This document shows, piece by piece, positions 50,789 through 51,904 of a stretch of DNA of 64,000 nucleotides; position 1 is the stretch's first letter, and each line of letters starts with the position of its first letter. The notes below the pieces were generated by a model. The model was not told the DNA's origin and did no database searches. It saw nothing but the letters and a program-made list of their open reading frames with translations. Where the stretch lies: assembly GCF_053078305.1 (NCBI RefSeq), contig NZ_CP166879.1. The stretch is one strand, 5' to 3'. The position numbers and the translations under genes were made by a program.

Positions 50789-51304
50789 TCACAACCTCCC
50801 TTTTCTGACCAGAAGCATCCCCTTGTACAACAACTCAACTTCATTATGTACCCGTAACCTCTTTATCAGATTCTGCTTATGAGTGGAGAATGTTTTCTCT
50901 GACATGCCAAGATATCGTGCCCCCTCTGTTCCGTTACTGCCATAAAGCAGCATCATCAGTACATTTACCTGCCGGCCTGACAGGGTCAGCTTCTCCACCG
51001 ACATGAATGCGCGGTACAGATGACTGATATCGTTTACTGAACATCGCTCAGTAAGATGTCTGATATCATAAACCGGACTGTCAACCACTCCCCAGAGAAA
51101 ACGGAGCGCTTCCGGAGAAGAAAAATAAAGGGTGTTCGTATCACTTATATTATTCTTATACAGAAAGCCGACAATTTCAGATATCCGGGAAGAAGATATT
51201 ATCACCACATTATCTGTCTGCATGCCGCTGATAATGAATTTACCGGGATTAATATACTCCTTCACTCCCTCCAGAAAATAACTGTTATCACAAATAAAAC
51301 GCAT
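50789..51304 (-). CDS. LuxR-type HTH transcriptional regulator
   Basis: 171 aa; C-terminal LuxR-type HTH (LSGRQVNVLMMLLYGSNGTEGARYLGMSEKTFSTHKQNLIKRL). Confidence 0.6.
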   Translation of the reverse strand: MRFICDNSYFLEGVKEYINPGKFIISGMQTDNVVIISSSRISEIVGFLYKNNISDTNTLYFSSPEALRFLWGVVDSPVYDIRHLTERCSVNDISHLYRAFMSVEKLTLSGRQVNVLMMLLYGSNGTEGARYLGMSEKTFSTHKQNLIKRLRVHNEVELLYKGMLLVRKGRL

Positions 51305-51427
51305 ACCCGTTCCACATGAAATTTATCACGCCTGACCACATAACATTAATTATCCGGAGCACCGGGATGCCCGTGACACAGCATGCACAGAAATTCCCGT
51401 CGCAACAGCCTTCATCAGACCGGCTTT

Positions 51428-51904
51428 TTACCGGTCTGCGGTGCTGCAGAGATATTTAACACTGACACCTCGCAGACCATTTTTCTCCATCGCATTGTAA
51501 AGATGCGCACATACCGTCTTCATGCTTATCCCCAGCTGGTCTGCCAGAAAGGTACAGCCGTACTCATGGAAAATAACCCCGAAGACCACCACCATCTCGG
51601 TACGGGTCAGTGGTCTTGCCGTATGTCCGAACAACCACGCACCACGACGGATGGCCTGCCTGATATCTGTCAGGCATCTCACAGAGGAAACAGGAATGAC
51701 AAGAAAACGACGCCCACAGAACATACAGTATGTAAGCCTTTCCAGATTACGGTCACAGAGAATCACATAACTGTCTTCGGGAAGTGGCAGACGGCGCTTT
51801 CCGGCATCAAACAGTTCACGGCCTGTCGTGAGCCTGTATCCGTTCAGCATACGCATCAGGCCATATTCCAGATATCTGTCACGGGTCATAATAATAATCT
51901 GCAT
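51428..51904 (-). CDS. LuxR-type HTH transcriptional regulator (second, diverged)
   Basis: 158 aa; C-terminal HTH (LTRTEMVVVFGVIFHEYGCTFLADQLGISMKTVCAHLYNAMEK). Confidence 0.55.
   Translation of the reverse strand: MQIIIMTRDRYLEYGLMRMLNGYRLTTGRELFDAGKRRLPLPEDSYVILCDRNLERLTYCMFCGRRFLVIPVSSVRCLTDIRQAIRRGAWLFGHTARPLTRTEMVVVFGVIFHEYGCTFLADQLGISMKTVCAHLYNAMEKNGLRGVSVKYLCSTADR

Follow-up and report, generated by a model that had tools for sequence, protein, structure and literature searches.

PapX, MrpJ and SfaX-type regulators are encoded at the 3' end of fimbrial operons and repress flagellar genes when the adhesin is expressed. TosE and TosF of Escherichia coli are among the few regulators built into the operon of a type I-secreted adhesin, and their mechanism is still described as unknown. 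Three papers (PMC5956150, PMC7545054 and PMC10392849) describe the tos operon as comprising TosR of the PapB family, the TosCBD type I secretion system (T1SS), the repeats-in-toxin (RTX) adhesin TosA, and TosE/TosF; with reference to Engstrom et al. 2014, they name TosR, H-NS and Lrp as the regulators of the operon. In two of these papers TosE/TosF are reported for "suppression of motility" (PMC5956150 and PMC7545054, citing Engstrom, Alteri and Mobley 2014), and in the third TosEF appears among the fliC regulators (PMC10392849, citing Engstrom et al. 2014). Here we analyze two tandem genes, ORF1 and ORF2 (open reading frames 1 and 2), in a 64,000-nucleotide (nt) stretch of E. coli DNA from contig NZ_CP166879.1 (RefSeq assembly GCF_053078305.1), referred to below as the window, and compare them with TosF and TosE.

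50789-51304, minus strand: ORF1, TosF-like regulator of the LuxR/GerE family, 171 amino acids (aa)
51428-51904, minus strand: ORF2, TosE-like and prophage ORF-156-like protein, 158 aa

Coordinates, strand and lengths are exactly those of an earlier note on this DNA, which had proposed that two small LuxR-type proteins of 171 and 158 aa control the adjacent adhesin genes. Judged by sequence comparison, the pair are divergent members of the TosE and TosF families in a rearranged tos locus, a kind of regulator pair that is already known.

Homology to TosE and TosF

ORF2 aligned over 154 of its 158 residues with a 160-aa protein at the tosE position of the uropathogenic E. coli strain CFT073 (37% identity, E 2e-40), and ORF1 aligned over 171 residues with a 169-aa protein at the tosF position (42% identity, E 1e-43). 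A local all-against-all comparison returned the same ORF2-TosE and ORF1-TosF pairing. The CFT073 segment 335703-346938 encodes a PapB-like protein, TolC, ABC and HlyD components, a large repeat protein, and then the 160-aa and 169-aa genes; the latter two (345925-346938) lie directly after the large repeat protein of the PapB/TolC/ABC/HlyD cluster (335703-345804). The tos operon is contained in the pathogenicity island PAI-CFT073-aspV (248751-348573; review PMC7545054). Since the CFT073 pair falls within this tos-bearing island, ORF2 corresponds by position to TosE and ORF1 to TosF. At 37-42% identity the window proteins are best described as distant homologues of TosE and TosF, not as proven orthologues.

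The tandem order of the two genes is conserved. ORF1 detected homologues in four tos loci by tblastn (39-42% identity), and full-length ORF1 homologues, also 39-42% identical, are present on plasmid-collection records. The layout there is a PapB-family regulator, TolC, ABC, HlyD, an Ig-like giant protein, a 160-aa helix-turn-helix (HTH) protein homologous to ORF2, and the ORF1 homologue. Clusters of the tos type end in the same pair in seven of seven further loci (L013-L019), with a two-gene spacer of 21-29 nt in five of them. Among 5426 complete E. coli genomes, a tos-type pair was found in 241, including CFT073 and Nissle 1917, and at least 80% of the window-type pair in 28; at least 80% of window positions 50400-52300 was present in 31. 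Intermediate regulator alleles (62%/59% on plasmid M3, 89%/88% in L015) were also recovered. In related islands TosC, TosB and TosD are 92%, 95% and 98% identical to their CFT073 counterparts; beside such nearly identical secretion genes, at least three or four allelic lineages of the TosE/TosF pair occur that diverge deeply from one another.

Both ORFs are more than chance reading frames, because full-length homologues of 37-46% identity keep their length and order in independent loci and the ratio of nonsynonymous to synonymous substitution rates (dN/dS) is below 1. Intact lengths of 157-160 aa for the ORF2 type and 166-171 aa for the ORF1 type are retained across lineages that are 37-46% identical. 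Against more divergent copies, dN/dS was 0.27-0.36 for ORF2 and 0.09 for ORF1, from small counts in each case. The ORF1 copy of one related island (L003, strain JNEC-KY172, 17043-17618) has a 1-nt indel close to its 3' end that alters and lengthens the C-terminus, and the annotated coding sequence (CDS) is 537 nt.

We also considered ORF1 and ORF2 as recent tandem duplicates of one gene; this was ruled out by a mutual BLASTP E-value of 2.5. Profile-profile comparison of the two families gave E 2.7e-5 and a probability of 74%; the alignment spans 95 columns that begin at the third strand and include the HTH. These alignments point to a common architecture, not to a recent common origin.

Domain architecture

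The earlier note had ascribed to both proteins a C-terminal LuxR-type HTH with neither a receiver nor an autoinducer-binding domain. For ORF1 the HTH is clear: Pfam GerE (PF00196, LuxR-type HTH) matched residues 107-158 with 39.7 bits against a cutoff of 23.5, and the AlphaFold2 (AF2) model has four confident helices at 110-167, with a predicted local distance difference test score (pLDDT) of 83-93 for residues 110-150. Together these place a four-helix HTH at about residues 107-167. The putative HTH of ORF2 is divergent. Its GerE match is partial and lies below the cutoff (21.8 versus 23.5 bits, profile positions 22-44 of 57). The single ORF2 sequence matched the sequence of the GerE crystal structure 1fse at E 0.005, and the family profile reached 1fse at E 2.3e-4, with LuxR/NarL-type DNA-binding domains as ten of its eleven next best matches. 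Individually, five of 12 ORF2-family members reached GerE (E <= 0.01), and two of 12 reached Sigma70_r4_2.

The best AF2 model of ORF2 has a pLDDT of 76.7 and a predicted template modelling score of 0.75; the other four models score about 50, so the fold is read with caution. In this model a strand-helix alternation from beta1-alpha1 to beta4-alpha4 is followed by a helical C-terminus in which the last helix of the HTH looks short. The best Foldseek matches in the PDB were all full-length NarL/FixJ regulators, with StyR first (E 4e-3), followed in order by FixJ, RcsB, NarL, VpsT, EvgA and DosR. A comparison of the model with a viral structure library returned response-regulator matches only, none of them significant.

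By sequence profile, the receiver domain PF00072 was absent from ORF1 and ORF2 at E <= 1 and from the 12 ORF2-family members at E <= 0.01, and the autoinducer-binding domain PF03472 had no match in ORF1 or ORF2. NCBIfam matches, including SdiA and the PA1136 family, were restricted to the HTH part. Since the beta-alpha N-terminus of the ORF2 model resembles receivers, the absence of a receiver holds for profiles in both proteins and probably not for the fold of ORF2. In its general form, that both are LuxR/GerE-type DNA-binding proteins lacking a canonical sensor domain, the description in the earlier note was supported.

Residues of the putative phosphorylation pocket were placed by sequence pattern and AF2 secondary structure, not by structural superposition. 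The ORF2 family has an invariant Thr7 followed by Arg/His8 where the acidic pair after beta1 is expected, and 12 of its 12 members keep an Asp51 after beta3. In ORF1 the corresponding places hold Asp6-Asn7 and Ser37/Ser38, the latter, not Asp, where the phospho-acceptor is expected. The acidic pocket of canonical NarL/FixJ response regulators, an Asp-Asp pair plus the acceptor Asp, is therefore incomplete in both proteins. Furthermore, no HisKA or HATPase domain of a histidine kinase was detected in the neighboring ORFs scanned (about 39.6-64 kb of the window) or in related islands. From its model, ORF2 appears to join a divergent LuxR-type HTH to an N-terminal half that is short, degenerate and receiver-like; both proteins are probably atypical LuxR/NarL-type transcription factors that work without phosphorylation.

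Relationship of ORF2 to prophage ORF-156

ORF2-type genes are also carried by phages. Lambdoid prophages have copies of 43-45% identity at their moron end, right after a YadA-anchor gene. In phage records, tblastn with ORF2 found ORF-156A/C/D/E at 44-46% identity over about 98% of its length; these genes lie just 3' of eibA/C/D/E, which encode immunoglobulin-binding adhesins, in the ECOR-9 prophages P-EibA/C/D/E (GenBank AF151091 and AF151674-6). ORF2 matched the phage protein family phrog_6585 at E 9.5e-44, residues 1-153 aligning with profile positions 1-154 of 156. Identity is 46% between ORF2 and ORF-156, 37% between ORF2 and TosE, and 30% between ORF-156 and TosE. TosE-type proteins and prophage ORF-156 belong to one family. 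The literature that we searched did not mention an equivalence of TosE with ORF-156/phrog_6585; the search was limited and is no proof of novelty. A recent preprint on JNEC-KY strains describes the new Eib-like adhesins Cla and Yal with their contexts, and the words "regulator" and "LuxR" do not occur in its text.

In all 13 phage records with an autotransporter homologue, a full-length ORF2 homologue begins about 90-94 nt after it. Six more full-length phage copies, about 37% identical and carried by phage 2B8 and by Stx1a phages, lack an adhesin gene upstream and come after tail-fibre genes. In Stx2 phages the ORF-156/TosE-like copy behind the tail-fibre genes is shortened (L011: 933W L0123 / VT2-Sakai H0139), and about 155 records of Shiga toxin (Stx) phages have such a copy. 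In total, a phrog_6585-type gene, whole or truncated, is present in 174 phage records, many of them Stx phages. ORF1 had no homologue among the phage records. Between the window and the phage modules, DNA homology covers the part encoding the autotransporter anchor and reaches as far as the end of the CDS (window 52305), but no farther.

Neither family appears to reach beyond E. coli and close relatives. A collection of 5.8 billion proteins contains 41 members of the ORF2 family, and all those with a source name come from E. coli. With the ORF1-family profile, an exhaustive HMMER search of 1.84 billion representative proteins gave 5346 matches at E <= 0.001, of which nearly all cover the GerE domain only and a handful are full-length relatives. 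Of the distant full-length relatives of ORF1, one setting is behind a giant protein with PapB nearby, another is the 3' end of a chaperone-usher fimbrial operon, and a third is the interior of a different fimbrial cluster. Thus the association of the ORF1 family with adhesin loci reaches beyond tos.

Genomic context and transcription signals

The region is an E. coli genomic island with a mosaic tos operon. Around the pair it contains the following features.

63156-64000, minus strand: 3' part of a tosD-type gene for an HlyD-family T1SS adaptor (HlyD domains), ending with the window
55798-62871, minus strand: giant repeat adhesin, 2357 aa, with a TosA-type N-terminus joined to a different repeat body
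53770-55698, minus strand: RTX-repeat lipase/esterase, PueAB-like (NCBIfam PueAB, 334 bits; RTX repeats)
52301-53527, minus strand: Eib-like trimeric autotransporter adhesin (TAA), 408 aa, with YadA anchor, head and stalk domains
52234-52277, minus strand: terminator-like hairpin and U-rich stretch, UGCUUUUCU, directly 3' of the autotransporter stop codon
51967-52179, minus strand: acidic ORF of 70 aa, flanked by the autotransporter gene and ORF2; hypothetical protein by RefSeq annotation
51416-51438, minus strand: perfect hairpin of 9 bp across the stop codon of ORF2, not followed by a U-tract
50526-50714, minus strand: gene for a small membrane protein of the YqaE/Pmp3 family (Pfam Pmp3), 74 nt 3' of ORF1

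Along the minus strand the order is giant protein, RTX lipase, YadA-type autotransporter, 70-aa ORF, ORF2, ORF1, Pmp3-family gene and EEP-family gene, with successive spacers of 99, 242, 121, 62, 123, 74 and 262 nt. The earlier note had placed the pair immediately downstream of the autotransporter gene. The 396-nt gap between them contains the 70-aa ORF and the terminator-like hairpin, so that the pair is not strictly immediately 3' of that gene.

The pair belongs primarily to the T1SS adhesin operon. The HlyD fragment at the window edge is 97% identical to residues 153-415 of CFT073 TosD, and annotated relatives carry TolC-family, T1SS ABC and HlyD genes upstream, beyond the edge. The first 128 aa of the giant adhesin are 86% identical to CFT073 TosA, and the rest is unrelated save for a C-terminal region of about 30% identity. 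This change in identity places a putative recombination breakpoint inside the giant adhesin gene. The repeat body itself consists of repeats of roughly 100 residues. The RTX lipase, a probable T1SS substrate, is inserted between the giant adhesin and autotransporter genes, where another strain has a second YadA-like gene. The autotransporter matched EibD (2xqh) at E 1e-39 and is 47-52% identical to EibC/D/E. Relative to CFT073 tos, the autotransporter, the lipase and the 70-aa ORF are insertions, and replacement of the 3' half of a tos locus would be the simplest reading of the mosaic.

The 70-aa ORF had no Pfam, NCBIfam or PHROG match. Its dN/dS is 0.16-0.30, from small counts, and it travels with ORF2, including in the remnant loci of UTI89 and sequence type 131 (ST131). 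Neither CFT073 tos nor the phage eib-orf156 modules contain it, and ORF-60A of P-EibA, examined as a possible counterpart, has no similarity to it. The YqaE/Pmp3 gene adjoins ORF1 in all window-type islands examined and is 100% conserved there (L001-L003).

Island flanks vary and are rich in insertion sequences (IS), and the chromosomal position differs among the genomes examined. In two window-type islands (L002 and L003), tosR of the PapB family was not detected upstream of tosC, the place being taken by IS110, IS3 and IS66 elements; the window variant may therefore lack the known regulator of the operon. In about 369 genomes, including UTI89 and ST131, what is left is an intact ORF2 (87% aa identity) with the 70-aa ORF and pieces of the autotransporter gene. 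These remnants (L021 in UTI89, NZ_CP062228.1, 4799840-4801700) adjoin an EEP gene fragment, with ORF1 and Pmp3 deleted, and sit between the pap operon and another chaperone-usher operon. PAI ICL3, considered as a possible island with lipase, RTX and adhesin genes, was rejected as a match: reviews give it as a ShlA/ShlB two-partner-secretion island, now part of the Locus of Adhesion and Autoaggregation.

The hairpin after the autotransporter gene (52234-52277) has a folding energy of -34.8 kcal/mol for an 81-nt stretch (z -2.3), and a canonical terminator is found at the equivalent place in the phage eib-to-orf156 spacers. RNA folding of the hairpin at the ORF2 stop codon (51416-51438) gave -25 kcal/mol and z -4.7, with none of 200 shuffled sequences as stable. 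It could act as a partial transcription barrier or as an mRNA-stability element, and it may set the level of ORF1 relative to ORF2.

Several other features of the window lie farther from the pair. A ShlB/FhaC-type two-partner-secretion transporter gene with POTRA domains occupies 2538-4310 on the minus strand. On the plus strand at 5280-19847 there is a long co-directional biosynthetic cluster that resembles aryl-polyene-type lipid gene clusters; it encodes an O-methyltransferase, an acyltransferase, an AMP-dependent ligase, a family-2 glycosyltransferase, an MMPL-type exporter and two ketosynthases. A small metabolic module at 35527-40507 comprises minus-strand genes for an Asp/Glu racemase, a DcuA-type C4-dicarboxylate transporter and a lyase of the fumarase/aspartase class, and, divergent from these, the gene for a LysR-type regulator. 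Pieces of an autotransporter of the SPATE type (serine protease autotransporters of Enterobacteriaceae) are spread over three minus-strand ORFs at 44269-46276 (ESPR signal peptide, Peptidase_S6 and beta-solenoid); they look like a pseudogene, and IS3 and IS110 adjoin them.

Discussion

With moderate confidence, we propose that ORF2 (TosE-like) and ORF1 (TosF-like) are atypical, probably phosphorylation-independent LuxR/NarL-type factors at the end of a mosaic operon for a T1SS and a giant RTX adhesin of the tos type, and that they have a TosEF-like role in motility. As for TosE/TosF, the pair would be made when the adhesin locus is expressed, and it would repress flagellar genes, namely fliC, perhaps through flhDC. 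Adhesion and motility would thereby be reciprocally controlled. ORF1 and ORF2 would probably act jointly, either as a heteromer or as an activator plus a modulator. Alternatively, each might have RcsB as its partner, like other short atypical E. coli LuxR-type proteins. The autotransporter gene and an ORF2-type gene may have formed a mobile two-gene cassette that recombined into a tos locus at the tosE position.

Several observations weigh against this proposal. The motility role of TosE/TosF is reported through papers that cite the original work, and for the window pair that role is carried over by analogy from the homologues. With 37-42% identity to TosE/TosF and unlike recognition helices, the pair may have other targets. 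ORF2-type genes also occur solo, in phages and in the 369 or so remnant genomes, and an obligate ORF1-ORF2 partnership is thus not required. The N-terminal domain of ORF1 has an AF2 pLDDT of 25-56, and its model is unusable. The terminator-like hairpin after the autotransporter gene, the hairpin at the ORF2 stop codon and a two-gene spacer of 123 nt, compared with 21-29 nt in tos, speak against simple co-transcription with the adhesin genes. In addition, a scan for sigma-70 promoters found no consensus promoter on the minus strand and no enrichment.

The pair, or ORF2 alone, might instead directly control the autotransporter, lipase and giant adhesin/T1SS genes and so compensate for the apparent loss of tosR, a reading that we hold to be possible if unlikely. 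It is close to the proposal of the earlier note, of which the association with adhesin loci proved real and conserved, extending over sequences that are only 37-46% identical. The supposed targets are another matter: because TosE/TosF are reported to suppress motility and TosR to control the operon, the idea of adhesin control is only partly supported. The earlier note had itself named a clear orthologue with a different known target as evidence that would speak against it, and TosE/TosF, with their reported motility role, largely amount to this. Since they are distant homologues, regulation of neighboring genes by the window pair could still occur. The 13 of 13 phage records in which an ORF2-type gene follows the TAA gene point in this direction, as do the two window-type islands with no tosR homologue upstream of tosC, whereas the six full-length phage copies without an upstream adhesin gene point away from it. 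Expression of the Eib and Cla adhesins is condition-dependent, with regulators unidentified (PMC5450701; bioRxiv 10.64898/2025.12.25.695649), which would fit a local regulator; PMC5956150 and PMC7545054, in contrast, give operon control to TosR, H-NS and Lrp and link TosE/TosF to motility. A precedent exists in AutA/AutR of avian pathogenic E. coli (APECO1_1682/1683), an adjacent LuxR/GerE-type pair next to upaB that binds the upaB promoter as activator and antagonist (PMC4844996). We take AutA/AutR to be the proteins annotated as HyxA/HyxR in CFT073; they fall outside both families, as HyxR resembles TosF at the HTH only (E 0.012) and nothing was found for HyxA. An inverted-repeat search of 50700-53800 likewise found no common palindrome or motif in the intergenic regions that such a regulator might bind.

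GadE, BglJ, RcsA, MatA and DctR heterodimerise with RcsB. Like these and other short atypical E. coli LuxR-type proteins, each window protein could pair with RcsB and work only as such a heterodimer, tying the island to envelope-stress signaling. This reading, which seems to us rather improbable, is compatible with motility repression, since RcsB complexes repress flhDC. In size (158-171 aa) and architecture the two proteins are like GadE (175 aa) and DctR (176 aa), the structural matches of the ORF2 model include RcsB, and the ORF2 N-terminus MQIIIMTRD is reminiscent of MFLIITRD in DctR. By hhalign against a GadE/DctR profile made of two sequences only, the ORF1 family aligned beyond the HTH (probability 92%, E 8e-7, 102 columns; ORF1-family columns 49-153), and the ORF2 family aligned over its full length, if weakly (E 0.0016, probability 16%). 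Pairwise comparison is less favorable: with GadE and DctR, ORF2 gave nothing and ORF1 only E 0.002. We therefore rejected direct membership and keep GadE/DctR as architectural analogues only. Finally, one or both genes might be non-functional remnants in a mosaic, IS-ridden island. The flanking IS elements and pseudogenes, the deletion or fragmentation of ORF1 and the autotransporter gene in about 369 genomes, and the 1-nt indel near the 3' end of ORF1 in one strain would fit decay. The intact ORFs of conserved length (157-160 and 166-171 aa) across lineages of 37-46% identity, dN/dS values of 0.09-0.36, and an ORF2 that is intact even in remnant loci all argue against it, and we consider it very improbable.

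The kinship of ORF2 with ORF-156 permits a broader hypothesis, which we offer tentatively and regard as doubtful at present. TosE/ORF-156 proteins might be companion regulators of E. coli non-fimbrial adhesins generally, with a two-gene cassette of an Eib/Cla-type trimeric autotransporter gene and a TosE-like gene that is exchanged among tos-type islands and lambdoid prophages, recombination taking place at the TosE-like gene; the companion would either activate the adhesin under host-like conditions or shut flagella down once the adhesin is produced. If true, this would account for condition-dependent Eib/Cla expression (PMC5450701; bioRxiv 10.64898/2025.12.25.695649) in Shiga toxin-producing E. 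coli (STEC) negative for the enterocyte effacement locus (LEE), and would assign a function to phrog_6585. More generally, our findings may help to explain the condition-dependent expression of Eib/Cla chain-forming adhesins. They also provide handles on the coordination of non-fimbrial adhesins and motility in LEE-negative STEC and extraintestinal pathogenic E. coli, namely a natural allelic series, solo and paired versions of the regulators, and the invariant Asp51.

Comparison with known systems

The advance is incremental and does not define a new kind of system. TosE/TosF of the CFT073 tosRCBDAEF operon are the closest described counterparts: the window pair has the same sizes, order and strand, stands at the same 3' end of a cluster of tosCBD plus adhesin gene, and shares the LuxR-type HTH, putative in ORF2, with neither a canonical receiver nor a nearby kinase. 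The differences are that the window regulators are very divergent although the adjoining T1SS genes are nearly identical; that the lipase, the Eib-like autotransporter and the 70-aa ORF lie between adhesin and pair; that the two-gene spacer is 123 nt with a strong hairpin as against 21-29 nt; and that ORF2 is nearer to prophage ORF-156 than to TosE. ORF-156/phrog_6585 in turn resembles ORF2 in that both lie downstream of a trimeric autotransporter gene of the Eib type and of the terminator-like hairpin that follows it. In phages the gene occurs solo and lacks a TosF-type partner, and the spacer of about 90 nt has no 70-aa ORF, whereas the window spacer of 396 nt does.

GadE and DctR (YhiF) of the acid fitness island are similar in having a degenerate receiver-like N-terminal part followed by a LuxR HTH, and ORF2 has in common with them the N-terminal motif I-[IM]-T-R-D; their genomic context and known regulon, acid resistance, are unlike those of the window pair. 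AutA/AutR are likewise two adjacent LuxR/GerE-type regulators beside an adhesin gene with no kinase. They act together, as activator plus antagonist, and have global targets besides the neighboring gene, but they are larger (253 and 264 aa), are divergently organized, and do not close an adhesin operon at its 3' end. PapX, MrpJ and SfaX belong to unrelated families (MarR-like or HTH_XRE-like, not LuxR/GerE). What the window pair has in common with them is a regulator gene at the tail of an adhesin operon, a functional analogy.

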